64,000 bases of DNA from Octopus sinensis (Eukaryota). Each line of letters starts with the position of its first letter. Position 1 is the first letter of the stretch. The stretch is taken from assembly GCF_006345805.1 (NCBI RefSeq), contig NC_043013.1, forward strand, positions 53,878,001 through 53,942,000. Direction: 5' to 3'. The notes under the pieces are model-generated. The model ran no database searches. It was not told the DNA's origin and saw nothing but the letters and a program-made list of their open reading frames with translations. Positions 1-48,140 of the stretch are shown here, piece after piece. The translations under genes were made by a program, and so were the position numbers.

Positions 1-205
1 TAAGCAAGTAGGTCAACAGAGGAAAGAGTGAGAGAAAGTTGTGGCAAAAGGGTACAGCATGGATCAGCGCCACACCCTGTCAGAGCCTCGTGGAGCGTTT
101 AGGTGTGTTTGCTCAATAAACACTCACAACGCCCGGTCTGGGAATCGAAACCGCGATCCTACGACCGCGAGTCCGCTGCCCTAACCACTGGGCCATTGCG
201 CCTCC
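1..205 (-). mobile_element. tRNA-derived SINE (family C), head at 205, runs off the left window edge
   Basis: Minus strand begins GGAGGCGCAATGGCCCAGTGGTTAGGGCAGCGGACTC...GGTTTCGATTCCC, with Pol III A-box and B-box-like motifs. The body matches the end of the fragment at 9440-9568 (taagcaag.aggtcaa). Confidence 0.75.
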
Positions 206-411
206 ATATATATATACATATGTATGTATATACATATTTGCATATATATATATATAATATATACACATATATATACACATATATATATATGCACACATAT
301 GCATATATACGTCTGTGTGCGTGCGCGCATCTGTTTTCCTGTTCAGCTATAATAAGAAATGATTTCGAATTGATCTGAAGGATTATCCCATGATTTTGAA
401 GAGAAAAAATG

Positions 412-553
412 TATTACTCTCTAACAAGAACAAAATTGACAGTGACTTTGAAGTGTCCGGCATGTGAGCCATCATCTGACAGTCCGATGATGGCCTCGCC
501 TGGCTGGAACTTCAGAATTACTGTCAAAATACTGTTCTTGTTAGAGAATAATA
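412..553. repeat. Imperfect ~140-bp foldback containing two degenerate back-to-back hammerhead-like motifs
   Basis: Arms tattactctctaacaagaaca / tgttcttgttagagaataata, ttgacagt / actgtcaa and ccatcatc / gatgatgg, centred on gacagtc. Confidence 0.75.
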
Positions 554-594
554 TACAGGCATAGAAAGACCGAGCCCAAGATGTACATTTATGG

Positions 595-620
595 ACATGT
601 GTGTGTGTGTGTGTGTGTGG

Positions 621-661
<41 letters not shown>

Positions 662-786
662 TAATATATATATTATATATATTATTTATTATATATATAT
701 ATATAAACGATGATGATGATGATGATGATGATATATATAATATATATAATATATACATATAAATATATACATATATATATATATAC

Positions 787-824
<38 letters not shown>

Positions 825-1126
825 TACATATAAATATATATAATATATATATATATATATATAATATATATAATATATATATATATATACATATAATATA
901 TATATATATGTATGTATGTATATATATAATATATATACTTAGGGAGAGAGAGAGGAAATGTACAATTTATACATATACACATTCTTATGCATATATATAT
1001 TATACACATATACCCATATATGTGTACACATATATGTATATATATATACATACACACACACACAAACATACATACATGCATACATACATACCTACACATA
1101 TACATACATACATACAAATGCTTATA

Positions 1127-1170
<44 letters not shown>

Positions 1171-1172
1171 TA
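595..1172. repeat. Compound microsatellite (GT)n-(TA)n-(GAT)n-(CATA)n
   Basis: Directly visible simple repeats. The aaacgatgatgat motif at ~705-730 is the extreme 3' tail of the RTE-type repeat. Confidence 0.95.
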
Positions 1173-1434
1173 ACCTTCTGTTAGCTACTTTGCATGCTCA
1201 CTAACGAAGCAAACCATAAATAGCAGCAAGCACTAACCAGATGAAGTATTTTGGGAACCAATGAAGAACATGAATGCTATAAATTGGTCACTTGGCAAAC
1301 TAGCATCGACGTCACACTGGAAGATATCAGGCGCCCATCAAGGGTTAGTACGATGTGAAATGATCTGAGAAATGTTTTGAAATTGCATTCTTAAAGTAAT
1401 AAATTCTCCAAGCATGCACAAACTGATTTTGAAT

Positions 1435-1471
<37 letters not shown>

Positions 1472-1844
1472 ATATATATATGTGTGTATATATCTACATA
1501 TATGCATACTCTCTCTCTTTTAATCTTTTACTTGTTTCACTGCCTCTTGGGTTGGTATCAAAAGGGTTAAACCTCTGCAACTTTTACATCCAATTTTTTT
1601 CTCCACAAATTCATACCTTCATAGCAATTAAAATGGAAAACTTTATTATTTTTGCCGATTTTCAGATTTTTACTGTCTTTTAAAAAAGGTATATTTTGTG
1701 AAATGAAAAAACTAGATCTTATATTTTGTTTACTTATAAATTGCAATTTTGGAAAATAAAATTTTCTTTTTTACAGCCGCAATTTCTGTTTTTATTTACC
1801 TGAAATTATAGTAAAAACAAATTTTAACATTTGGCTGTTATTTT

Positions 1845-2228
1845 TAGCACGTGGAGAGACCTTCTTTGGCTTAACTTCATATGCTGGTTGAAAATCATCT
1901 AAAAAACATTCTGGAGTCGGTACATTCGACTAAAAATTCCTCAAGGTGATGCCCCAGCATGGCCACAGTCCAATGACTGAAACAAGTAAAAAGATTTTTG
2001 GAAAGTCAAAAAAAGAAAAATCAATGAATAACCAAAAAATATTACGGTGGGGGTTATAAAAATTTTCAAGAGATTTGGCCTTTATTTCTAGCATGTGGAG
2101 AGACCTTAGCTTCATGTGCTGGTTGAAAATCATTTAAAAAAATTCTGGGGTCGATATATTCGACTAAAAATTCCTCAAAGCGGTGCCCCAGCATGGCCAC
2201 AGTCTGCAACAAGTAAAATAAAAAAAAA
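1845..2228 (+). repeat. Diverged tandem duplication (~240-bp period), each unit ending in a SINE-A 3' tail
   Basis: gca.gtggagagacctt...tgctggttgaaaatcat...ttcgactaaaaattcctcaa...ccccagcatggccacagtc...aacaagtaaaa occurs at ~1847-1993 and ~2091-2220. Confidence 0.7.
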
Positions 2229-2249
2229 TAACTGAAAAATATAACCGTG

Positions 2250-2340
2250 GAGCTTTTGTCCAAGAGGCTTTTGTCTGTAGCGTTCTTGTCCTAGTGGGCT
2301 TTTGTCTGTAGCGTTCTTGTCCTAGTGGGCTTTTATCTGG
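2250..2340. repeat. Short minisatellite (30-bp unit made of 15-bp subunits)
   Basis: ggcttttgtctgtagcgttcttgtcctagt repeated twice, plus partial copies. Confidence 0.8.
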
Positions 2341-2559
2341 ATCTCTTCGCTCCAGACCCCAGTTTACCTTTACACTTTTCATTCTTTCCTTCTATCTTTC
2401 TTCCTTTCTATCCCATCTTTTTATCCTTCTCCTGAGCCCTCGCATTATACCTTTGGAACACAAACACCACTATTTTCTTTCTTAGTTACCATCATGTAGT
2501 GTCCCACATTTTGAAATACTTGCAAATTGGTATTTTCACTGCTTATGTTTGCTTCACTT

Positions 2560-2700
2560 GATCTATTTCCGAAATGAAGCACACACTTCCATAAGTAGTT
2601 GCAGTGCTTGGATCACATTGGTGAAGAATCCATCCTGTTGATCAAAATAGTCTTCAACAGCAGATAAGACGTCATCATAACAGCGATACTGGTGCCCAAT
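2560..2700 (-). pseudogene. mariner transposase C-terminal fragment
   Basis: Minus strand reads GHQYRCYDDVLSAVEDYFDQQDGFFTNVIQALQ, similar to the mariner C-terminal region that follows YSPDL. Confidence 0.5.
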
Positions 2701-2879
2701 CCACATTTTCAGAAAAAACTTTGGACCTTGATTTGCACCCACTTAGCAAATTGTGTTGCTCAGCCAGCTACCCAGGGTTTCCAGGCTGAAATATGAATTT
2801 GTTTCGCAATTTTCCAAACTGAGAAAAAGACCATTTATTCATTGTTTTTTAAACAGATGACATTGAATAAGGGATTATT

Positions 2880-3110
2880 GCTACTACTTGTTTCATCCAT
2901 TAGACAGTGGCCATGATGGAGCACCACCTTGAAGAAGTTGAAAGAATCAAACCCAGTACTTATTGCTTTTTTTAAAAAAAAAGCCTGTTACTTATTCTAT
3001 CAGTCTTTTTTGCTGAACCACTAAGCAATGTGGATGTAAAGACACCACACCAGTTGTCAAGCATTGGTGGGGGACAAACAGAGACATGAATACATACATA
3101 CATATATATA
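2880..3110 (-). mobile_element. SINE family A, 3' half
   Basis: ggccatgatggagcaccacc...tacttattctatcagtc...gttgtcaagc matches the copies at 44120 and 54290. Confidence 0.7.
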
Positions 3111-3138
3111 TACATGCATACATACATACATACATACA

Positions 3139-3174
<36 letters not shown>

Positions 3175-3448
3175 TAACATAACAATGATGGCTAGGCACA
3201 ATATAGAACCATAAAGGAAAAATTCAGTTGTTGCTAATAGTGAGTGGAAGTGCAGGGTAGCACCTACATTGCTAGAAACAAGAGTCAAAGACCCTTCTAG
3301 CCACAGAAAGCACATTGTCTATCTACGGACAGGGAAGATAACCACCCTACAGTGAGTGAGGTCAATATACTAGCAAGCTAGTTTGACTTTGAATTAAAAT
3401 ACAGCAGTAGATTACTCCATCGCCCATGGCTAAGGTAAATCCTATGTA

Positions 3449-3497
<49 letters not shown>

Positions 3498-3499
<2 letters not shown>

Positions 3500-5440
3500 T
3501 AAACAGTAAAATTAAATACAGACATGGACAAGAACATGAAACACCACAGAGACGACACAAGAACCACAGGACGGGACATTCGAAGCCCTCAGTCATCAGT
3601 CAAGAACCAGATCATCTTAGCAATTTCGGCTGATTAATCTTGAGATTGCTCCGATATGGCCAGCCCGCCAAGGAAATCTAAGCCAAGCGCATTAGATCCC
3701 CTGGAAGAAAGCTTCGAATGTATACAACGAAAGGACGGAAAACGATCGAAGTACAAACAACAAAAATACAGAATACGTGACACCAATAAGAATACAAAAA
3801 CGTAAAAACAATAACGGTAAAAATAAAAAATAAACACAACAAACAAACCAGGACGTAGGACAAGGGTCTTTCGACAGGACGATTGAGTAGGGGCTGGCTT
3901 GTGAAGTTGTGCCTAAGGCCACGGGGAGAGACGAACAAATCCGTGTTGCTTCTGAGGCTGCTGAAAACGAAAAGAGCGCTCAACAGCGGCTAGCTGTCAC
4001 GTGAGAACAAAAGACAGGAGAAAGGGACAGATGAAAAGGGAGAGAAGGTGACGAGGGAGGAGAAGAAAGAGACAGATCGAGGGGGCTGGAGGTGAGAGAG
4101 ATAGAGAAACGTAGAAAGGGGGGGGGGGACGGATGGAGAGGGAAAGAACGGAAGTGGAATAAGGGAGGAGGAGAGAGAGAGAAAAAGAGACAGATTAAGA
4201 GTCGTATCAAAGCTTGAGAAAAAAATATACTTATCGTATAAGGACAATTGTGGATACGTAGCCGCCGATTATATAGGTAAACAGTAAAATTAAATACAGA
4301 CATGGACAAGAACATGAAACACCACAGAGACGACACAAGAACCACAGGACGGGACATTCGAAGCCTCAGTATCAGTCAAGAACCAGATCATCTTAGCAAT
4401 TTCGGCTGATTAATCTTGAGATTGCTCCGATATGGCCAGCCCGCCAAGGGAAATCTAAGCCAAGCGCATTAGATCCCCTGGAAGAAAGCTTCGAATGTAT
4501 ACAACGAAAGGACGGAAAACGATCGAAGTACACAAACAAAAATACAGAATACGTGACACACCAATAAGAATACAAAAACGTAAAAACAATAACGGTAAAA
4601 ATAAAAAATAAACAACAAAACAAAACCAGGACGTAGGACAAGGGTCTTTCGACAGGACGATTTGAGTAGGGGCTGGCTTGTGAAGTTGTGCCTAAAGGCA
4701 CGGGGAGACGAACAAATCCGTGTTGCTTCTGAGGCTGCTGAAAACGAAAAGAGCGCTCCACAGCGGCTAGCTGTCACGTGAGAACAAAAGACAGGAGAAA
4801 GGGACAGATGAAAAGGGAGAGAAGGTGGACGAGGGAGGAGAGAAAGAGACAGATCGAGGGGCTGGAGGTGAGAGAGATAGAGAAACGTAGAAAGGGGGGG
4901 GGGGACGGATGGAGAGGGAAAGAACGGAAGTGGAATAAGGGAGGAGGGAGAGAGAGAGAAAAAGAGACAGATTAAAGTCGTATCAAAGCTTGAGAAAAAA
5001 ATATACTTATCGTATAAGGACAATTGTGGATACGTAGCCGCCGATTATATAGGTAAACAGTAAAATTAAATACAGACATGGACAAGAACATGAAACACCA
5101 CAGAGACGACACAAGAACCACAGGACGGGACATTCGAAGCCCTCAGTCATCAGTCAAGAACCAGATCATCTAGCAATTTCGGCTGATTAATCTGAGATTG
5201 CTCCGATATGGCCAGCCCGCCAAGGGAAATCTAAGCCAAGCGCATTAGATCCCCTGGAGAAAGCTTCGAATGTATACAACGAAAGGACGGAAAACGATCG
5301 AAGTACACAAACAAAAATACAGAATACGTGACACCAATAAGAATACAAAAACGTAAAAACAATAACGGAAATAAAAAAAAAATAATCAAACAACAAAAAA
5401 CCAGGACGTAGGACAAGGGTCTTTCGACAGGACGATTTGA
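3498..5440 (-). mobile_element. Non-coding ~777-bp element in 2.5 head-to-tail copies inside (TA)n; hammerhead-bearing (retrozyme or Penelope pLTR-like)
   Basis: The unit start ggtaaacagtaaaattaaatacag occurs at 3498, 4276 and 5052 (periods 778 and 776). The third copy stops at ~5440, and (TA)n flanks both ends. Copies differ mostly by 1-bp indels. No credible ORF. Confidence 0.85.
3584..3661 (-). ncRNA. Candidate hammerhead ribozyme with non-circularly permuted strand order (copy 1; further copies ~4362-4437 and ~5138-5213)
   Basis: Minus strand AGCAA-UC-UCAAGA-uuaauc-AGCC-GAAA-UUGCU...UCUUGA-CUGAUGA-cugag-GGCU. Stem III is AGCAA/UUGCU, stem I is UCAAGA/UCUUGA and stem II is GGCU/AGCC. Predicted cleavage is between 3644 and 3643. 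Confidence 0.7.
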
Positions 5441-5566
5441 TATATATATATATATATATATAGTACATATATTATATATAAACAAGAAATTAAATGGAGA
5501 GATACAAATGACAATCCATATTTATGTGGCATTCAACCAATGTACAATGTACAACCAATGTTTTAC

Positions 5567-6158
5567 ACACCACTTTGAAGGAATTTTTTTCCTTTATTAC
5601 CTTATGTTGTATATATATATTATATCATCATCATCATCATCATCGTTTAATGTCTGTTCTCCATGCTAGCATGGGTTGGACGGTTCGACCGGGGATCTGG
5701 GAAGCCAGAAGGCTGCACCAGGCTCCGGTCTTATCTGGCAATGTTTCTACAGCTGGATGCCCTTCCTAACGCCAACCACTCCGTGAGTGTAGTGGGTGCT
5801 TTTTACGTGCCACCTGCACTGGTGCCAGGCGAGGCTGGCATCAGCCATGGTCGGATTGGTGCAATTTACGTGCCACCTGCACGGAAGCCAGTCGAGGCGA
5901 CACTGGCTTCGGCCACGATTCGGATGGTGCTTTTTACGTGCCATCGACACGGAAGCCAGTCGAGGCGGCGCTGGCATCGGCCACGATTCGGATAGTGCTT
6001 TTTACGTATCTCCAGTCCAGGGGTCCTGGCATCTGCCGGGTGCCAGTCATAGGATTGGTTCAATTTCGATTCCGATTCCAATTTCGATTTCGATTTCACT
6101 TGCCCCAACAATATATATACAACATAAGGTAGTAAAGGAAAAAAATTCCTTCAAAGTG

Positions 6159-6162
<4 letters not shown>
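5567..6162. mobile_element. Small foldback/MITE (~50-bp arms) split by an RTE 3'-end insertion
   Basis: acaccactttgaaggaatttttttcctttattaccttatgttgtata (5567-) is the reverse complement of tatacaacataaggtagtaaaggaaaaaaattccttcaaagtggtgt (-6162), with one mismatch. Confidence 0.75.
5625..6108 (-). mobile_element. 5'-truncated RTE LINE 3' UTR (or a SINE sharing it) with (GAT)n tail and internal ~60-bp repeats
   Basis: (CAT)n-cgtttaa...ccatgctagcatgggttggacgg...ctggatgcccttcctaacgccaacc is the reverse complement of the RTE tail at 34700-34891. Confidence 0.85.
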
Positions 6163-6210
<48 letters not shown>

Positions 6211-6329
6211 GTATATATATATATATATATATAAAAGCAATATGTTTCAAATAGAAAATAGAAACTACAAGTGGAGGATAAGATATAGGGAAAGTAAGAA
6301 GAAAACAAGCAAAAATGCATATTGAATAT

Positions 6330-6608
6330 CATTTTTGCGGATAGTAGACTGTATTGAACATGAAACAGTTGTTTAGTAGGATGAATTTCAGTGCTGCAAT
6401 TATGAATCTGTGGTTGATGCATCCTGGGGTCTCTTCTGGGTATTGTTTCTATGCCATCATCGCGTGGGATATTGGTGTACAGGTTCCCCACAATAAATGA
6501 TACTAACAGGGTTCCTTCATTTATTCTCTTTGGAAGGTGGTTAAGCATGTCTAAGTCATCCCAACACCATTTGATGATCGGTAAGCATTCAAAGCCAGTG
6601 AACAGCAA
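6330..6608 (-). pseudogene. Penelope-like reverse transcriptase fragment (inverted relative to the adjacent element)
   Basis: DDLDMLNHLP...TLLVSFIVGNLYTNIPRDDGIETI resembles the PLE RT motif LVSFDVxxLYTNIP, with the catalytic D lost. Confidence 0.75.
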
Positions 6609-6639
6609 TTATGACACTGGTTTGACTTTGAATCTCTTT

Positions 6640-9350
6640 AACAATTCAAAATATTAAATTTAATTCCTCTTAATTCTACCTCAGTTCATCTAATTGTATT
6701 TATTTACCGCTACTTTTCATTAAAAAAGCCTTTATTTTTTTTTTTTATATTCAATGTGCATTTTTGCGTTTTTTTCTTCTGATTTTCTTCTTATTTTCCC
6801 CATATCTTTTCCACGTGTAGTTTCTATTTTCTCTTTGAAACATATTCCTTTTGTATTTTACTACACCTGAGACCAAAAATGCCACAGATATCAAACTCTT
6901 CAGTTAAAACTCTCAACGAAGATACTCTAAAAGAGCTAAAAGAGATTAACTCGAAGTTGAGACTCTTAATTAACAAGATTGATGAACCAACTCGATTTAT
7001 ACAAGAGGAAAAGGAAAAAGAAGAGAAAAGGCAATCTCTGGAACAACTTAATCAACATTTGACCAAATTATGCACCACCCTTCAATCTTTACCTCACAAT
7101 AATTGTATAAATGAAAATCCCCCTATAGATGATCATCATCATCATTGTTCGACCAGGGTCGAGACAATGGAATTTACCGTGCTACGCCAGACTTCATGGT
7201 CCATCATAGCATTACGGAGGTCCTGTTGCTGGATGCCTGTATCCCTGGAGATTACATCAGGGTAGGAGAGTGTAGGTTCCATCCAACCGCCTCTCAAGCT
7301 TCTTTGATAACGTCCAGGTTTCTGAGCCATATAGTAGAATTGGTTCGACTGTGGCTTTGAAGATTTCAAGTTTGAAGTCTCTACTTAGATTTGATGACCA
7401 GACCTTATGCATGTCATTACAGGCTGACCAGGCCATACCCTTTCTAGTTAGAAAATCTTTTCCAGATGATGATATGTATGACCCAAGATATTTGTAATCA
7501 GAAACCATATTTAAAGGTGCACTGTTGAGAGTATGGATGATGCAATCACTGTTGGACAGGCACTTGTTTATGTATTCAGTCTTGGCCTCGTTGAGGTAAA
7601 GACCTACACAATTTGAGGCTTGTTCGAGAGATTGTAAAAGAGACTGGGCATTGGAGAGAGAATCACTGATAAGAGCGATGTCGTCAGCAAAGTCAGTGTC
7701 TGTCAAGTATTCAGCTGGGTGTCTGGAACTTCTTCTTGGTTTTATTTCAAAGCCCTTGCTAGAAATGGTATCAACTGACATACGTAGCACATAGTCAACG
7801 ACAATGATGAAAAGAAATGGGGCGAGTGTGTCTCCCTGCAGTATTCCGGCTTTGATTGAGAAAGATGATGTTCCTCCGTCAGGGGTTAAGATGGTTGAAG
7901 ACGTATCTGTGTAGAGGACCTTGATGGCAGAAATGATTTTGTCTGGTATCCCATAGAGCTTAAGGATTTCAAACATCTTGTACCTATCTACAGAGTCGAA
8001 CGCTTTAGAAAAGTCTACAAACACCATTGCAAGATCGCGATTAAATGCTTTTGATCCTTCAATAAGTCTATAGATGATACACAGGATAGAACCCCGCTCC
8101 ACGTATTCACAATCAATTAAAAACCGGATTATCCATATCTGGAATGAGAAACTTCAAGCCAGAAAATTTTCTTTCTGGAATATCATTAAAAGCAACTATA
8201 AGGCAGTAATTTATGAATGTTGGTTAAATTCAACACCAATAATTTTACCTCGTGAATTTCAAATTAATCCCATACCAAACGAGCAGGACCAACGAAGACA
8301 ATTAAGGGAGAAACTAGCATAGGAAAAATTGAAGACAGAAATCAAACTCAAGCTTAGAGCATTAAGCAATGAACAACAATTAAAAAACACAGACAAGGAA
8401 ATATATACAGAATTAAGGAAACGTTCCCAGATGGTCAATGCTTGGAAAGTGTTTAGAAACTGTGGAAAAAACTTGTGAAGCTGAAGAGACCAACTCCCTG
8501 CAATGCTGGGAAAGACAAGCCAATTTCTTTATTAACTACGAAACACAGTTCACCATAGAAAACACATCGGCTAACCTCTTCCTGAAGAAAAATAAACCAA
8601 AAACATAACACAGAAATGACCCCACACTTATCAAACACAAACCACAGACAGTCTAGGGAACACAACTCCACCGACCTGACCTCTCTTACATCCCAAAATA
8701 ACTTTCAAACAACAAATAGAAAATCCAGACGTAATCCTCAAGGCATCCAACATACAAATAAAAGGTTCCATCGAAACCTCCAGACTAACCTAAACTTTTG
8801 GAACTGCTACCTACCAATCTACTCCCATCATCTCACAATCAATGGAAGAATTTACCTCCAAGACTTAACCCTCAACATGGTTACTTCAATCATTCAACTA
8901 AACACAACCTAATTAGACAACGTAACTTCTCCCTCCACCCACATTACAATATTGAAAATAGATTTAACCGAAACCACATCAACCATAGACAACCCTCGGC
9001 ACAACCATAATCTAGTCCACTACACGGTCACCCCACCACAATCACACTACCACAGACACACTTTACACCTGTTTTCTCCTCACCAAACCAAACCAAACAC
9101 AATACAGACTTCCCACAACAATCCACCTGCAACAACCATTTTTTGGACTTAAATCAGAAAAAACAGAGATGTGAAATGGAACAAAATACACAAGAACAAC
9201 CGAAAATAATCAACTTATCAAAGAAAATCCTAAGTATTACACAAACTCACATTCTAGCAAGAGGTTTAAAGTTTACACCAACTCCTTGGAGATCGAACCC
9301 GAATGAAATTAAGGATAACATTATGGTACATATGTGTTTTATGCAAAATC
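6640..9350 (+). mobile_element. 5' portion of a degenerate Penelope-like element, interrupted by an RTE insertion
   Basis: Broken ORF pieces at 6879- (coiled-coil-like), 8074-8322 (WNEKLQARKFSFWN...YECWL...P.EF) and 9143-9355. The last reads IINLSKKILS...ILARGLKFTPTP, the typical N-terminal motif ahead of PLE RT. Confidence 0.65.
7134..8067 (-). mobile_element. 5'-truncated RTE-clade LINE (RT domain) with 11-bp target-site duplication
   Basis: ORF 7257-8102 has FVDFSKAFDSV, GILQGDTLAPFLF, DFADDIAL, YKYLGS and LLYGSETW. (GAT)n tail at ~7134-7145. TSD ctatagatgat at 7123-7133 and 8068-8078. Confidence 0.92.
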
Positions 9351-9439
9351 TGTGATGAACCTGAGTGATTGCTGATGACCTGGAGTCACCTCTGATATAT
9401 ATATATATATATATGAATATGATGATATATATATATATA

Positions 9440-9715
9440 TATATATCACCATGATCACCGTGACTGACCAGGCTATCAGATGTTGCTACACATCGCTGGT
9501 CACAATGCACTTCGCATTGTTTTAGCCTTCAAATGATGCCACCCCGCTGGCTAAGCAAGCAGGTCAATATACATATATATATATACATGACAAGCTTCTT
9601 TCTGTTTCTGTCTACCAAATCCACTCATAAGGCTTTGGTTGGCCCAAGGATATAGTAGAAGGCAGTTGTCAGGCAGTGGGACTAAACCTGGAAGTATGTG
9701 GTCAGGAAGGAAACC
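9440..9715 (-). mobile_element. SINE C 3' fragment (9440-9568) followed by SINE A 5' half (9585-9715)
   Basis: Matches the sequence at position 1 and the cttctttc.gtttctgtctaccaaatccactca.aaggc block of family A. Confidence 0.65.
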
Positions 9716-10560
9716 TATAGATGATATAGTCCTAGATACATTATGACATTAAAACAAAGACAAGAAAGTTGTGTCTGTAATGATGGTGATCTCAGATCTG
9801 CTTGATCAGGGCTGTGACGAGATTAAACAACAACTCACTGACTGTGCCACAGCCCAAGCAGGTAACCATTCAGCTGGTAGTTTGATATCCAATTAATTCA
9901 GTCAGAAGAAACATGAATACAATGTAGATTAAAATTCTTATCTGCAAAACTCTAAAAATATAAGTTAATAATTTTAAATATTTAAAACTTTCAACGTCCA
10001 TTTCTCTTTTTTTTTTCTTTTCTTTCTCTTAGAAAACAACTCAGTTAATTTAGGCTAAAATCTTGTATTTCACTTGAAGTATTGTAGTCTAAGTATAAAA
10101 ACAGGAAGATAGATAAAGCTATTTAACACAGCAGCAGTTGTGAGAAAACCAAATTTATTCAATATTTTCGCCTTTAACAAGTTCAAATCTTCAACTCAAC
10201 ATTGCTAGAGCTGTTTACCATTTTATTCTGGTTCTAAAACATTGGTTTTTGTTTGTTTTTTTACTTCAAAATTAGATTTTATTAAAGGTGAAACTGAATA
10301 TATTTTAGTTTTCTCCTACTGTACAATGTGACATAACTTCCTTTACTATTTGCATGTAGCTGAATTTACTTAGAATTCTTCAAAAAAAAAGAAAGAAAAA
10401 GGAATATAAACCACATAACGAAACCACTTATACATATGCATATGTGTACCTGCACATGTAAACATATGTGAATGTTTGTGTATGAATGTGTATATATATA
10501 TATATATATATATACACGCATATGCATTGTATGTATGTGTATATATATATATTTATATAC

Positions 10561-10596
<36 letters not shown>

Positions 10597-11157
10597 ATAC
10601 ACACACATGTTTGTATGTGTAAGTATATGTGGGTACATGTGTTTCTTTCTCTTTTGAAATTGCTTTAATTCCTCTGACAAGGAAGAAGCTGGTTTCTAAC
10701 AAAATGATAAATTCCCTGGAATTTGGATAATGAAAATGATGTTACGTGCTGAACTTCAGGAAAATTTTGCACACTTTCACTGTGCTACTTAAAGATTGTA
10801 TTTGTAAAGTGAGTACGAGCTGGTCTCTTTCTTTGCCTAGAATCCTAAATTTTCAAGATTGTTATTTAAATAGTTATGAACATAATCAAGGGCACTAATT
10901 TGTCATATAATTAATTTCTCATATAAATGAGAAATTATAATCAGAGTAGGGAAGTTTTTGTCTATAAAAATTCTCCTTTTAATTGATTTTCAAATGTTCC
11001 CATCTACAAAGGAGATGACCCCTTTAGTGGTAGATTGGATATACTTTTCTGTCCCAAACAACTATCTCAGACCTGTTTTGGCAGAAGTTTTGATGAGAAT
11101 GGTCCACCAATATTCTTTGTACTGTCATGCATGAATTGAATTATGTGCATTATGTAT

Positions 11158-11171
11158 ACACATCATCACCA

Positions 11172-11215
<44 letters not shown>

Positions 11216-11530
11216 GTCGTCATCGTCGTCGTCGTCGTCGTCATCGTCATCTTCCCCTTAACGACCACCATCACTAGCACCATGACCACGATGACCACCA
11301 CTACCTTCATCATCATTATCCTTATCATCTTTATCATCATCATCTTTATCATCATCGTTGTTGTCATCGTCGTCGTCGTCATCATCATCATCATCATCGT
11401 TTCAACTTCCACACTTCCATGCTTGCGTAAATCAGATGGGATTTGCAGAGGCAGATTTTCTCTGGCCTAATGCCCTTTCTGTTGTCAACCCTCATCTATT
11501 TCTAAGCAAGGCAATATTTCCAATAGCCAG
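11158..11530 (-). repeat. Expanded (CAT/CGT)n tail plus degenerate RTE-type 3' end
   Basis: A ~240-bp trinucleotide array followed by ttccatgcttgc...tgccctttctgttgtcaacc. Confidence 0.75.
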
Positions 11531-11564
11531 ATATGTTTTTTATGGAAGGCATTCCTTCCTAGGC

Positions 11565-11765
11565 TCAAGGCCTGAAATTTTGGGGGAAGGGGGCCAGTCG
11601 ATTAGATTGATCCCAGTACACAACTGGTACTTAATTTATCAACCCCGAAAAGATGAAAGGCAAAGTTGACCTCGGTGGATTTTGAACTCAGAACGTAAAG
11701 ACAGACAAAATACCACTAAGCATTTTGCCTGGCATGCTAACGATTCTGTCAGCTCGTCACCTTAT
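11565..11765 (-). mobile_element. tRNA-derived SINE family B
   Basis: Reverse complement of the element at 13532-13917 (gatgaaaggcaaagttgacctcgg...tttgaactcagaacg). Further degenerate plus-strand copies lie at ~12145-12530. Confidence 0.75.
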
Positions 11766-12865
11766 TAAAATTTTTAACTATACCCCTTGTAATTTCTGGA
11801 AGAGATTTGGAACCACCACCTATATATTGTATTGCTACTTCTCAACACCCATAGCTACTGGGCCGTTATAATATTGTTTTAGCAACAACATTGTGCTGCA
11901 ACGGGAACTACATCTTGGTGCTATTTTAAGGCAACTGCTGATCATGTGTGAAAAATCTTCCACAGAAAAGTGACATAATTGACATTTTCAGATGCATCTC
12001 GAAGTTTAAGAACTTCATGGAAATTCAGTTTATTCCGTATTTCACTGCTATCTTTTGCTTTTGAAGTGCAAAGGCATGCTACTCAAAATGTGACAAATCC
12101 AAAGAAAGCTACACCTCATGTTAATATTACTTTCAATTTTGAAGGCTGTGAGCTGATAGAATTGCTAGCTTACTGGGTAGAATGGTTAGCGCCATTCATT
12201 TGTCCTCACATTCTGAGTTCAATTCAGAGTCAAATTCTGCTGAGGTCAACTTTGCCTTTCATCCTTTCTAGGTCAAAAAGTACCAGATGACACCGGGGAT
12301 GATGTCATTGATTTTTTTAACCCATCCCACAAAATTGCTGGTTTTGTGCCTAAATTTGAAATGAAAATTACTTCCGAATTTTGGCACAAGGTCTACAAGT
12401 GGCATTTTGCCTGTTTTTATGCTCTAAATTCAAATTCCACTGATGTCAACTTTGTCTTTCATCCTTTCGGGGTTGATAAAAAAAAAACCAGTTGATTACT
12501 GGGGGGGCGATGTAATCAACTTACCCCCCCCCCCCCCGCATACATATGTGTGTGTATAAATGTATGTATATCTTGTGTCTTTTACTAGTTACATTCATTA
12601 GACTGCAGCCATGCTGGGGCAACATCTTCAAGTATTTTAGTCAAGCAAATTGACCCTAGAACCTATTTTCCTTTTTTTTAAGTCTGGAACTTATTCTATC
12701 AGTCTTTTTTACCAAACTGCTAAGTTACAGGGATATAAACACACCAACAACAGTTGTCAAGCACTGGTTGGGATAAACAATAACACAAAGACACATACAC
12801 ATATACACACACATGCACACTTATATATGTGTGTGAGTGTATATGTATATATATATATATATAAT

Positions 12866-13330
12866 AGACCTTTATATAAATAAATAACGTGAAATACACG
12901 AAGGGACGAACAAAAAAACAAACGGGTCATTCAAAGCCTTCATTCTTCAGTCAGAAACTGATCCCTGATCGCAGATTTCGGCTGTTTAATTCTGAGATCC
13001 GCTCTGAATCAGCCAGCCACAGAAGGAAAGAATGAAACGCAACAGAGACGAACATGAAACGAAAAATCTTTTTTTGGGGACAGTAACAGTTAAAAACATG
13101 GATGACATAGGCGCCCTACGGCTTTGAGACAAACAGAGAGACACAAAAACAATATCAACAGCGTGGAAAAATAAGTACCTTTTCGGTGATGAGACACATG
13201 TAGTTGAACAAGCGGCCGATGGAAACGAGGCAGCAAGTTGCAAGAGGATAAGAGAGAGAAAAGGGGGTAAGAGAGAGAGGGGACAGTGACCGAGAGAGAG
13301 AGGGGGGGAGAAGGAATCGAAGGAAAGAAA
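12866..13330 (-). mobile_element. Diverged relative of the 777-bp hammerhead element, single truncated copy in (TA)n
   Basis: It shares acggg.cattc.aagcc, tttcggctg.ttaat and gccagcc, plus the same order of A-rich segment, ribozyme motif and GA-rich tract. TA runs flank it. Confidence 0.75.
12935..13014 (-). ncRNA. Candidate non-circularly permuted hammerhead ribozyme (second family member)
   Basis: Minus strand GCGGA-UC-UCAGAA-uuaaac-AGCC-GAAA-UCUGC...UUCUGA-CUGAAGA-augaa-GGCU. Stems I and III differ in sequence from 3584-3661 but still pair. Predicted cleavage is between 12996 and 12995. Confidence 0.7.
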
Positions 13331-13531
13331 ATATTTATATATATATTTATATATGGTGGGCTTCTTTCAGTTTCTGTCTGCCAAATCCACTTACAAGGCT
13401 TTGGTTAGCCTGAGACTATAGTAAAAGATACTTGCCCCATGTACCATACAGTGGAACTGAACCTGGAACAATGTGGTTTGGAAGCAAGCTTCTTAAAACA
13501 CAGCCATTCCTGCACCAATATGAATACTATT

Positions 13532-31911: not shown

Positions 31912-34889
31912 ACTAACTTCAGGAAACCTACCAGCCACCTAGTCACTTACCGATCGGGCCAACATACCAGCCAAATTGACTACATCCCTGCAAGGCAAAG
32001 GGAGAGATGGCTGCTTATAAATGCCAAAACCTTCCCAGGCGAAGAATGTACCCCACAACATAGACTGGTAGTTAGTGACTTTAGGATCAAGACTAGGAGG
32101 ACAACCAGAAGACGACCAATATGGAGAAGAAGGATCTGGAAGCTTAAAGATCCTGCAAATGGACAGAGATTTAGGGACATATTACTTGAAGCCTTTGACG
32201 AAGTAGAAGGGGATAGAGCATCACAGGGGGTAGAAGACAACTGGACGTTTCTAAGGGACAACCTGCTGAGAGCCACTGACCAGATCTGTGGTTGGTGCAA
32301 AGTCCCCTCTCGACCTAGAATAACGTGGTGGTGGAACAATATTGTAGACAGGGCTATTAGAGAAAAGAGACAGGCTTGGAAGGTCTGGAAAAATGGGGGT
32401 AGCAGGGAATTGCATCAGACTGCCAAAAGAGAAGCTAGGAGACAGGTTTATTTAGCCAGAGGGGAAGCAGATAAGAAAAAAATTGCCAATGTTCTGCCCG
32501 TGAGGACCAAAGACTGGAGGTGTTTCGCGTTGCAAGACAGTGTGTGAGAGAGAATCGTGATGTGGTAGGAGAGAAGTGTGTTCGCATGGAAGATGGTTCA
32601 CTTGCGCTAAATGAGGATGCAAATAGAGAGGTTTGGAGACGCCACTATGAAAGGTTGCTGAATAAAGAAAATGAATGGGATAAAGAGAGTCTGCCGAATG
32701 TCAACCCAACAGAGGGACCAGCTATCCGAGTTGATAGTTCCTTGGTAGTTAAGGCAATTAGAAGCATGAAGACAGGGAAAGCCCCAAGCCCATCAGGAAT
32801 CACTGCAGAGATGCTCAAAATGTCTGGTAGTGTCAGCTATAGCCTAGTCACCCGTATAGTTAATCAGGTGATACACAAAGGAGTCATACCCAATGACTGG
32901 TTTAGCAGCATAATAGTCAACTGCTACAAAGGTAAAGGTGATGCCCTAGATACAAATAACTACAGAGGTATCAAGCTGTTGGATCAGGTGATGAAGGTTA
33001 CGGAGAGGGTCATAGCCCAACTAATTAGAGAGAGAGTTAGTTTAGATGAGATGCAGTTTGGGTTTGTGCCAGGGAAAAGTACCACTGATGCTATATTCCT
33101 GGTAAGGCAGCTGCAGGAGAAATATCTAGCCAAAGATAAGCCCCTGTACCTGGCTTTTGTTGACATGGAGAAAGCCTTCGACAGGGTCCCCCGATCCCTT
33201 ATCTGGTGGTCAATGAGGAAACTAGGGATAGATGAATGGTTAGTGAGAGCTGTGCGGGCCATGTATAGGGATGCTGCTAGTAAGGTGAGGGTTGGCAACG
33301 AGTACAGTGAAGAATTCCAGGTGGAGGTAGGGGTCCACCAAGGCTCAGTCCTCAGCCCCCTCCTATTTATCATAGTCCTCCATGCAATAACGGAGGAATT
33401 CAAGACAGGATGCCCTTGGGAGCTCCTTTATGCTGATGACCTTGCTCTAATTGCTGAGTTGCTATCAGAACTGCAGGAGAAGTTTCAGGTGTGGAAACAA
33501 GGATTAGAATCGAAGGGCCTCAGCATCAATCTAGCTAAAACCAAAGTACTAATCAGTAGGAAGGTAGACAAATCACAAACGCCTTCAGGTAGATGGCCCT
33601 GCTCGATCTGAGAAAAGGTGTAGGTAGAAACTCTATAAGATGCACCAAGTGTAAGCTATGGACACATAAGAGGTGCAGCAATGTCAAAGGAAGGCTAACT
33701 AGGAAGATAGTTTTTGTATGTGGCAGATGTTCAGGAACAATAAACACTGAAAATGCTCTGAGACCAACTTCCGTCACTTTCCAGGGAGAAAAACTAGAAA
33801 TAGTTGATAGTTTCCGTTACCTAGGTGACCAAGTCAGCAGCGGGGGCGGGTGTGCTGAAAGTGTAACTGCTAGAGTAAGAATAGCTTGGGCAAAGTTCAG
33901 AGAGCTCTTACCTCTGCTGGTGACAAAAGGCCTCTCGCACAGAGTAAAAGGCAGACTGTATGATGCATGTGTACGACAGCCATGCTACATGGCAGTGAAA
34001 CATGGGCCGTGTAAGCTCGCAAGAAATGAAGCCAGTATGCTCCGATGGATGTGTAATGTCAGTACTCATACTCGGCAGAGTGTAAGTACCTTGAGAGAAA
34101 AGCTGGACCTAAGAAGCATCAGTTGTGGTGTGCAAGAGAGACGTTTGCGCTGGTATGGTCATGTGGCGAGAATGGATGAAGATAGTTGTGTGAAAAAGTG
34201 CCACACCCTAGCGGTTGAGGGAACCTGCGGAAGAGGCAGACCCAGGAAAACCTGGGACGAGGTGGTGAAGCACGACCTTCGAACTTTAGGTCTCACTGAG
34301 GAAATGACTAGAGACCGAGTCCTCTGGAAGTGTGCTGTGCGCGAGAAGACCCGGCAGGACAAGTGAGTCCATAACCCGTGGCCTTCTACATGGGATGGAG
34401 CCAGCCTACGTATGCATACCTTCCCTTCTTGGGACACAAAACTCTACTTGTGAAGACCTGTGAGGATCAGAATCGAAATCGATCAATGGAAATTGCAGAT
34501 GTGTTACCAGTGCCGGTGGCATGTAAGAGAACCATCCGTTTCGCGACCGTTGCCAGCACCGCCCCGACTGGCCTCGTGCCGGTGGCATGTAAAAAGCACC
34601 ATCCGTTCGTGTCCATTGCCAGCCTCGCCTGGCCCCCGTGCCAGTGGCACATAAAAAGCACTATCTGTTCGTGGCTATTTGCCAGCTCTGTCTGACACCT
34701 GTGCGGGTGGCACGTAAAAAGCACCCACTACACTCACGGGGTGGTTGGCGTTAGGAAGGGCATCCAGCCGTAGAAACACTACCAGATCTGACTGGGCCTG
34801 ATGAAGCCTTCTGGCTTCACAGACCCCAGTTGAACCGTCCAACCCATGCTAGCATGGAAAACGGACGCTAAATGATGATGATGATGATG

Positions 34890-45089: not shown

Positions 45090-45638
45090 AATCAAAATCA
45101 AAATCGATGACTGGCGTCTGTACTAGCAGGGTGCAAAGAGCACTATACGAGTGTGATCATTGACAGAGCGGCTAACCGGCTTCTGTGCCAGTGGCACTTA
45201 AAAGGCACCATTTGAGCGTGATCATTACCAGTGTCGCCTTACTGGCACTCGAACCCTGTGCTAGTAGGGTATTAAGAGCACCATCTGAGTGTGACCATTG
45301 CCAGAGCGGCTATCTGGCTTCCATGCCAGTGGCACGTAAAAGACACCATTCAAGCATGATCATTACCAGCATCGCCTTACTGGCACCTGTGCCGGTGGCA
45401 TGTGTAAAAGATTTGAGTGAAGTCGTTGCCAGTACCGCCTGACTGGCTCCATGCCGGTGGCATGTAAAAGCACCCACTACCCTCTCGGAGTGGTTGGCAT
45501 TAGGAAGGGCATCCAGCTGTAAAAGCTTTGCCAGATGAGATTGGAGCCTCGTGCAGCCCTCTGGTTCGCCAGCCTTCAGTCAATCGTCCAACCCATGCTA
45601 GCATGAAAAGCAGACGTTAAACGATGATGACGATGATT
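45090..45638 (+). mobile_element. RTE-type 3' UTR with an expanded internal tandem array
   Basis: Several diverged gtgccagtggca...aaa.gcaccat..gag units precede the common tail ending aaacgatgatgacgatg. Confidence 0.8.
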
Positions 45639-47117: not shown

Positions 47118-48140
47118 ATATATTTAGAGAGAAAGAGAGAGAGAGAGATATGGGTTAAATGAATGTTTTAATGAATTGCAACTGTTCTATTCTGTTCCTA
47201 TTTGAAGAATGGCACTGAATATTTGCTGTAGTTTCTGAACTTTCAAATTGGCTAATTTTCAACTACACCCAACAATTTTTTTCAACAGTAATTATAAACT
47301 GTTTTTTAAAGCAAACACTAAACAAATTCAAGCAACAAGAAAGATATTTTTCTGTTAAGGATTTGTATTTTCCTTAAAAATAATTAATTTTACTCATCAG
47401 CTGCAGTTCTGACTTAATTCTTTTTCAAATTAACTAGAAAAAAATCAAGACAAACCGGAAAGAAAACTACTCAAAATAAAAGAAAATTTAAATCTGTTAC
47501 ATTTCAAAAATGGTATGGTTAGTTTTAAGGGTAATAACTAAATTTTAGGAGAGACTTTGTTTTTGCCACTTGAAAGCAAGTGGCGTATTTCAGCCATTGT
47601 GTAAGCTTAAATTTTTCAGGCTGTTAGAAATAACAGTGAAATCTTTCTCAAATTATGCCTTGTTATCTTAAAAAGGACAGACTATGTTGAATGCTGTTGT
47701 TCCAGATACATTGTCTTGATAATGACAAGAAGCGTAAAGGTAAGGCTGATCATGGTTGAAATATCTTTGAACCATCAGTCTTGATGTGTGTATGTATGTA
47801 TGTCATCTTCATTTAATGTATGTTGGACAATGGTATGCTGGCATGGGTTGCACAATGTGACCAGAACTTGCAAGCTGGGGAGCCACACTGGATTCCAGTC
47901 TGATTTGGCAGGGTTTTTATGGCTGGATGCCCTTCCTAATGCTAACCACTTTACAGAGTTTGCTGAGTGCTTTTACATGGCACCGCATCGGCACTATTAT
48001 GCGGCAGTGCCGCAAGTGCTTTACACCACCAGAAGAATCAGTCTTAATACTTCTGCTTCTTGAGTACGGCAAGGCACCAAGTATCTCGACCCTTTGTCAG
48101 CTCATATATACATATATATATATATATGTATATGTATAAA

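Follow-up and report, generated by a model that had tools for sequence, protein, structure and literature searches.

A young non-coding tandem family in Octopus sinensis with a predicted split-core hammerhead and insertion ends that appear to record cutting and circle-copying

The window analyzed here is a 64,000-nucleotide stretch of the Octopus sinensis genome (contig NC_043013.1, positions 53,878,001 to 53,942,000, forward strand). Between window positions 3498 and 5439, it carries two full tandem units and approximately half of a third, all lying between TA tracts. The units start at 3498, 4276, and 5052, measure 778, 776, and ~388 bp, and are 97% identical to one another, with differences that are chiefly one-base indels. 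The original prediction of a 2.5-copy tandem array in (TA)n is borne out by these unit starts and by the TA runs on both sides, and its unit size of 777 bp comes close to the 778 bp found in the majority of 62 full units. No coding role was found for the unit: frames of at least 40 amino acids are of low complexity and are not shared between units, as anticipated from the absence of an ORF. Single-base deletions in copies 2 and 3 had been suspected to be long-read errors; they are missing from nearly every other unit (no column is gapped in more than 3 of ~90 units) and are therefore likely to be just that. The array is laid out as follows.

3443–3497, no strand assigned: (TA)n target tract at the fixed end (the 3' end in RNA sense); all 39 arrays examined start after TA repeats
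3498–4275, minus: unit 1, non-coding, 778 bp; the RNA sense is the minus strand
4276–5051, minus: unit 2, 776 bp, with one-base losses in the core that are likely read errors
5052–5439, minus: partial unit 3, unit bases 1 to ~388, the 5'-truncated end
5440–5480, no strand assigned: (TA)n tract at the variable end
4270–4275, with a second copy at 5046–5051, no strand assigned: TATATA at the unit junction, putative priming site for a nicked TA target

Elsewhere in the window, tandem 62–138 bp repeats with a common motif occupy 5795–6007, 34506–34725, and 45118–45386; the motif is presumably that of cephalopod SINEs.

The 778-bp unit belongs to a dispersed family, with 97 matches in the 39 places scored out of 1,556 candidates in the 2.72-Gb genome. 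Genome-wide, exact ends number at least 189 on the left and at least 374 on the right (reversed controls, 0). Both counts are minima: of 20 right-end loci inspected, all of which belong to the 778-bp family, 19 are arrays overlooked by the left-end pattern. Clean substitutions amount to only 0.43% per base, and the family is thus young.

Insertions share one shape. Among 39 arrays, each preceded by TA repeats, 37 start at unit base 1 and the other two at bases 2 and 3. They hold one to five units, joined without a gap at 55 of 57 junctions, and the final unit stops anywhere between base 40 and base 778. The longest complete array seen, at locus L163, reaches 5.2 units. The right flank is TA-like in 68 of 82 copies. 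Circular permutation of the start and end points, proposed as a check, was sought in the same 39 arrays and is rejected, as one end is fixed: on the minus strand, insertions have a fixed 3' end and a variable 5' truncation. Such a fixed end would result if priming by a nicked (TA)n target took place at the one UAUAUA that the RNA contains. The family thus has the fixed 3' end, variable 5' truncation, partial tandems, and microsatellite target of non-autonomous Penelope-like elements, and the non-coding tandem units, one ribozyme each, without LTRs and dispersed, of non-LTR retrozymes.

The putative ribozyme lies on the minus strand, once per unit. Its elements in the window are listed below, in the 5' to 3' order of the RNA for copy 1.

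3576–3721, minus: rearranged split-core hammerhead domain, copy 1, intact
3707–3721, minus: closing helix IV, 5' strand; partner 3576–3590, 2 nt after CUGAUGA; 15 bp in the MFE and 13 bp in the centroid structure, -22.6 kcal/mol; 71% of cells paired in 16 copies
3668–3704, minus: hairpin V, between helix IV and stem II; 69% paired
3661–3665, minus: stem II strand with G10.1, upstream of the cut site; partner 3628–3632; 86% paired in 22 copies and 91% in 16
3653–3659, minus: helix Y, joining the stem II and stem I arms; partner 3607–3613; 87% paired
3644–3649, minus: stem III strand with the AUC triplet; site of the insertion-end pile-up
3644/3643, minus: predicted cut, between unit bases 147 and 146; equivalents at 4420/4419 and 5196/5195
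3638–3643, minus: stem I, strand after the cut; partner 3600–3605; 91% paired in 22 copies and 95% in 16
3620–3632, minus: stem II 11.x strand, GAAA core, and stem III 15.x strand; GAAA is invariant in 22 copies, in part of which the search pattern required it
3593–3599, minus: CUGAUGA core, without a stem II strand directly after it
4354–4498, minus: ribozyme domain, copy 2, approximate bounds
5130–5273, minus: ribozyme domain, copy 3, approximate bounds

In the predicted fold, the hammerhead core is opened between A9 and G10.1, giving the order stem II strand, cut site, GAAA, CUGAUGA. Helix IV, hairpin V, stem II (with G10.1), helix Y, and stem III with the AUC triplet precede the cut; stem I, a 5-nt linker, stem II, GAAA, stem III, helix Y, stem I, CUGAUGA, 2 nt, and helix IV follow it. 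An older, truncated sister-family copy between TA runs at window positions 12880–13345 (minus strand) has the same rearranged hammerhead (triplet 12998–12996) with compensatory changes, and a weak, AT-rich match to the rearranged-hammerhead descriptor at 47442 (minus strand) is possibly due to chance.

The fold was derived using diverged sister families, 65–85% identical to the 778-bp unit. In 22 copies from diverged subfamilies, stems I, II, and III show 91, 86, and 81% pairing, respectively, and each of the three contains double changes; substitutions affect both partners in 26 of 29 pairs, in counts that ignore relatedness. None of 500 shuffles reached the stem-pairing score, and slid controls in these copies were 28–46% paired. 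When the outer helices are included, 81% of cells are paired (16 copies). The A15.1–U16.1 pair is present in 22/22 copies, and G10.1–C11.1 in 18/22 (15/16 in the set with outer helices). For stem II, the upstream partner is specific to each copy: 17 of 22 copies reach 4.5 or more out of 5, compared with 1 of 354 cross-family pairings, and perfect pairs come in seven different versions. The core bases CUGANGA, GAAA, and NUH are kept in all 22 aligned copies, with the triplets AUC, AUA, GUC, and GUA, although many of these copies were found with a pattern requiring the core; the motif was first seen in 12 homology-aligned copies, most of which keep the core. Genome-wide, the core pattern has 9,893 matches, as compared with three in the reversed control. 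Two observations are less favorable. A distant clade also has the option of a G-U-rich stem II adjacent to the core, which counts against a split core, and helix IV, strong in the 778-bp family, is unspecific across families (-12.2 kcal/mol with its own partner versus -10.7 with others).

Other foldings were considered. By eye, type I, II, and III hammerhead and HDV-like readings have stems that are missing or unconserved. A stem II with a downstream GGCUU partner is only 46% paired; at 0–2 nt after CUGAnGA, the 778-bp family offers at most one of four pairs for a stem II strand, the partner lying 19 nt upstream of the triplet. An alternative helix IV, pairing 3668–3673 with bases after the core (55% paired), was superseded by the 15-bp closing helix. 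The original prediction of one hammerhead per unit holds insofar as a complete hammerhead is present, in another strand order; its type I reading (CUGAUGA, GAAU, GUC) does not, being devoid of stem I, A15.1–U16.1, and G10.1–C11.1, and the type I order (CUGANGA, stem II, GAAA, stem III, NUH, stem I) is not found. An Rfam search of window positions 1–12000 with E up to 1 gave no ribozyme match. Cleavage had been placed at GUC; the cut is instead predicted after AUC at 3644, ~70 nt further upstream.

The closest hammerhead class is type-SGC, exemplified by HRIMA-1 (Eckert et al. 2023, PMC10085705, as far as its accessible text goes). Both have the cut site, GAAA, CUGAnGA order (i.e., S, G, C) with all core bases kept, a short linker between stems I and II, and an extra helix joining both arms (helix Y here, 71–87% paired). 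The stem II strand differs: it lies 1–2 nt after CUGAnGA in type-SGC (PMC10085705, same text), whereas the octopus fold places it upstream of the cut and spans the gap with two further helices. In the sections available to us, Eckert et al. (PMC10085705) define six permutations, assuming that CUGAnGA adjoins its stem II strand within 1–2 nt, and take a break between A9 and G10.1 to be impossible beyond 1–2 nt, an assumption that counts against the octopus fold. The same sections report type-SGC forms in no genome of a known organism, unlike the rearranged form, with ~10,000 copies in an animal. Literature searches over mostly freely readable papers yielded no report of a split-core hammerhead in animals.

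The predicted bond can be compared with the ends of insertions. The cut between unit bases 147 and 146 was predicted after 30 loci had been seen, and further loci were then fetched. Of 100 listed left ends, 90 were measured, with one duplicate row dropped; ten previously seen copies were left out, all of which pass base 147 in the first round. A copy scored at 149 was reset to 146 because the final three letters belong to the TA target, and another, at 193, is truncated by the boundary of its locus. Among 55 copies shorter than a unit, 26 end at bases 122–147 and none at 148–173. Expressed as a rate, first-pass stops at 122–147 account for 26 of 84 copies reaching base 122, or 26 of 94 if the ten left-out copies are restored. 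In the 61 rows fetched after the prediction, 20 of 38 first-pass stops fall in the cut region, with none just beyond. By contrast, later passes stop there in 1 of 43 cases (p = 7e-5), or 3 of 106 when pooled with 51 length-chosen arrays (p = 6e-8). The first-pass cliff matches the predicted bond to 1 nt and lies mid-structure, away from its edge. In 90 of 90 read-through units, bases 144–148 are unchanged. At the unit end, a single copy stops exactly (an exact monomer) versus 34 that cross the junction. The genome appears to record cutting, as ends pile up at the predicted bond in first passes. An older sister family gives a less marked pile-up, which counts against this interpretation: with 29 of 30 copies called, 11 end 3–20 nt short of the cut, none from -2 to +6, and five 7–28 nt beyond it.

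Units within an array also share sequence variants. At recurrent sites, mismatches number 29 of 1,328 comparisons within arrays versus 10,438 of 70,839 between arrays, which suggests that each array was copied from one monomer; on this mismatch count alone, local homogenization within arrays may be the source of the shared haplotype. Among array-private variants, 13 occur in all units of an array and 38 in only some, the latter likely reflecting read errors or later mutation.

Penelope-like elements can carry an inverted 5' copy and a tail of 30–40 bp; in the 778-bp family, inverted pieces were seen at 2 of 50 loci (L156 and L162). L156:978–1277 consists of forward unit bases 2–138 and then an inverted stretch running across the unit junction (113–2, then 778–725), and so requires a junction-spanning plus-strand template. 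The right end of L162, as well as L032:2270–2298, has short inverted pieces on the opposite strand that start from the TA junction, as if the second target end also primed on the palindromic TATATA. At L113:1350–1500, an old junction-spanning fragment (unit bases 708–778, then 2–82) sits in non-TA DNA and is also found in long contigs of two runs. Assembled contigs from four runs presumed to be RNA span the greater part of the unit, with three extending across the junction, although strand, ends, and circles are not readable from contigs. One of them, from run X7, begins at window position 5101 with 16 loose letters, and mispriming is possible; we take these letters to resemble a template-switch cDNA adapter. 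A long contig with 72 bases in common with the unit was traced to an old fragment inside unrelated DNA.

We consider it quite probable that the array belongs to a dispersed and young tandem element without coding capacity, the 778-nt RNA of which forms a rearranged hammerhead, is likely cut to monomers, likely circularized, and likely rolled into (TA)n by a borrowed Penelope-type reverse transcriptase. In such a cycle, a tandem transcript would be cut after AUC, once per unit. The last piece, from the final cut to the TA tail, would remain linear and give rise to short copies of up to 146 bp. Unit-length pieces would be ligated into circles, possibly by RtcB, a candidate by analogy to other retrozymes (PMC7229834, in the parts accessible). 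A nicked TA target would then prime on UAUAUA of the circle, and the enzyme would roll around it until falling off, generating arrays of up to 5.2 units with scattered stops. The fixed end, seamless junctions, and one haplotype per array match what rolling, target-primed reverse transcription on a ligated circle should produce. The non-coding, retrozyme-like, Penelope-type nature proposed originally is supported by the insertion shape and single-haplotype arrays, and rolling reverse transcription of a monomer circle, likewise proposed, is the best model for the seamless junctions, the single haplotype, and a pile-up confined to first passes. Stalling at a structure, or copying of a partly cut concatemer, would act in every pass and is contradicted by the later-pass rates.

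The main rival keeps the cutting and dispenses with the circle, in that the reverse transcriptase jumps end to end between linear monomers of one source locus. Template jumping is a property of non-LTR enzymes, and it would account for the pile-up at the cut as well as for one haplotype per array. Yet an enzyme that jumps should stop at base 146 equally often in every pass, in contrast to the fall from 26/84 to 3/106, and no bases were added or lost at the site in the 90 read-through units; we regard this route as unlikely. A different possibility is that the fold is a non-catalytic binding or pausing structure, the pile-up near base 146 being a transcription start or an enzyme stall. Here, the lack of precedent for a split core and the weaker pile-up in the sister family are in its favor, but 22 copies retain every hammerhead core base as well as an RUH triplet, and the cliff falls within 1 nt of the predicted bond, mid-structure, and is missing in later passes, making this quite unlikely.

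Two further explanations dispense with RNA processing. Helitron-like rolling-circle transposition, or local unequal crossing-over after insertion, could build arrays at the DNA level, and one fixed end with homogeneous units fits DNA circles or local duplication. Helitron-type ends are TC and CTRR, and such ends were not found in the unit; moreover, just 1 of 35 copies reaching the unit end stops there, and neither route gives a reason for first-pass copies to end abruptly at a ribozyme cut site. A DNA-level origin is thus very unlikely. We attach next to no weight to a long-read assembly artefact: one-base indels, typical of long-read error, do make up most unit differences, but 39 arrays with one to five units and array-specific haplotypes occur on many contigs.

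The reading in which a ligated circle is copied by a Penelope-type enzyme calls for a partner, and an autonomous Penelope-like element carrying the same sequence had been suggested as a target for searching. No 3' sequence match to an autonomous family emerged from 50 GIY-YIG loci or 50 motif loci, and the motif loci have no linked ORF; the fold alone recurs, in Naiad remnants. A 3.3-kb spacing of motif matches was rejected as an autonomous element. By eye, the published Octopus Naiad 3' end has the same fold, and a motif taken from the Octopus Naiad consensus has 209 exact matches in the genome. Downstream of Naiad-type reverse transcriptase (RT) remnants, on the same strand, the fold occurs at seven distinct places (reversed control, 0) in a scan of 45 partly overlapping loci, many of them too short to reach it. 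No intact Naiad was seen among 128 Naiad-type RT matches (125 of 776 candidates scored), the longest frame being 320 amino acids, and the indel-prone assembly could hide a low-copy element. The likeness seen between Naiad remnants and the 778-bp unit is one of fold; in this model, Naiad ancestry of the 778-bp element is likely.

The genome also holds young, intact Penelope elements with a C-terminal GIY-YIG domain, which we take to be 'Neptune-like', with open frames of 762–883 amino acids in 9 of 20 fetched loci. One inspected element ends in TA. These elements carry neither the unit sequence nor the fold, apart from two sister-family copies in their flanks. At L076–L084, copies of a young, intact Penelope family, 97–99% identical, have a 781-amino-acid RT and GIY-YIG frame and an upstream frame of up to 479 amino acids; near their TA end, a degenerate, minimal hammerhead-like motif was noticed by eye.

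Among known systems, the accessible text on metazoan non-LTR retrozymes (Cervera and de la Pena 2020, PMC7229834; Li, Clavereau and Pollet 2026) describes dispersed, non-coding tandem units with one hammerhead each and proposes a circle and Penelope mobilization, much as here. The hammerheads described there are type I, unlike the rearranged form in octopus, which is invisible to type I descriptors and Rfam, and it is in octopus that insertion ends appear to record cutting and read-through. The unit had been thought unusually long for an animal retrozyme, but 778 bp falls within the 51–972 bp spanned by vertebrate families (bioRxiv 10.64898/2026.07.22.740005, in its accessible part). Only one of nine predicted Xenopus retrozymes cleaved in vitro, which counts against the proposed cutting. 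Naiads, in the portion of Craig et al. 2021 available (PMC8557442), are reported without canonical hammerheads and as long dead in cephalopods. Naiad and the non-autonomous Chlamys/MRC1 elements (PMC8557442, same portion) resemble the 778-bp family in (TA)n targeting, 5' truncation, and partial and multicopy head-to-tail insertions. Unlike Naiad, the family is young (0.4% substitutions) and lacks an ORF, and the likeness seen between the two is one of fold, with no sequence match noted.

Overall, the family is real, young, and retrozyme-like, with an apparently new hammerhead wiring and indirect signs that cutting and circle-copying happen in vivo. The cleavage-and-circle record in insertion ends is new here. 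On balance, we also lean toward a wider claim, namely, that a split-core hammerhead not among the six published permutations, its core restored by additional helices, is active in an animal at ~10,000 copies and is the hidden ribozyme of Naiad-type elements, with insertion ends as direct genomic proof of retrozyme cutting, circularization, and rolling target-primed copying. If true, the hammerhead fold would be wider than current searches allow, the apparent lack of ribozymes in Naiad elements would be explained, and many missed ribozymes in animal genomes would be implied. A long-standing proposal, as given in the accessible part of PMC4209133, derives Penelope-type tandems from circular RNA; the octopus family would turn it into a quantitative, testable case, in which short copies end at the cut and long copies pass it without a scar.

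Lastly, at the right ends of L003 and L028 and in the left flank of L003, arrays directly adjoin older sister-family copies, the families nesting in each other's TA tails.
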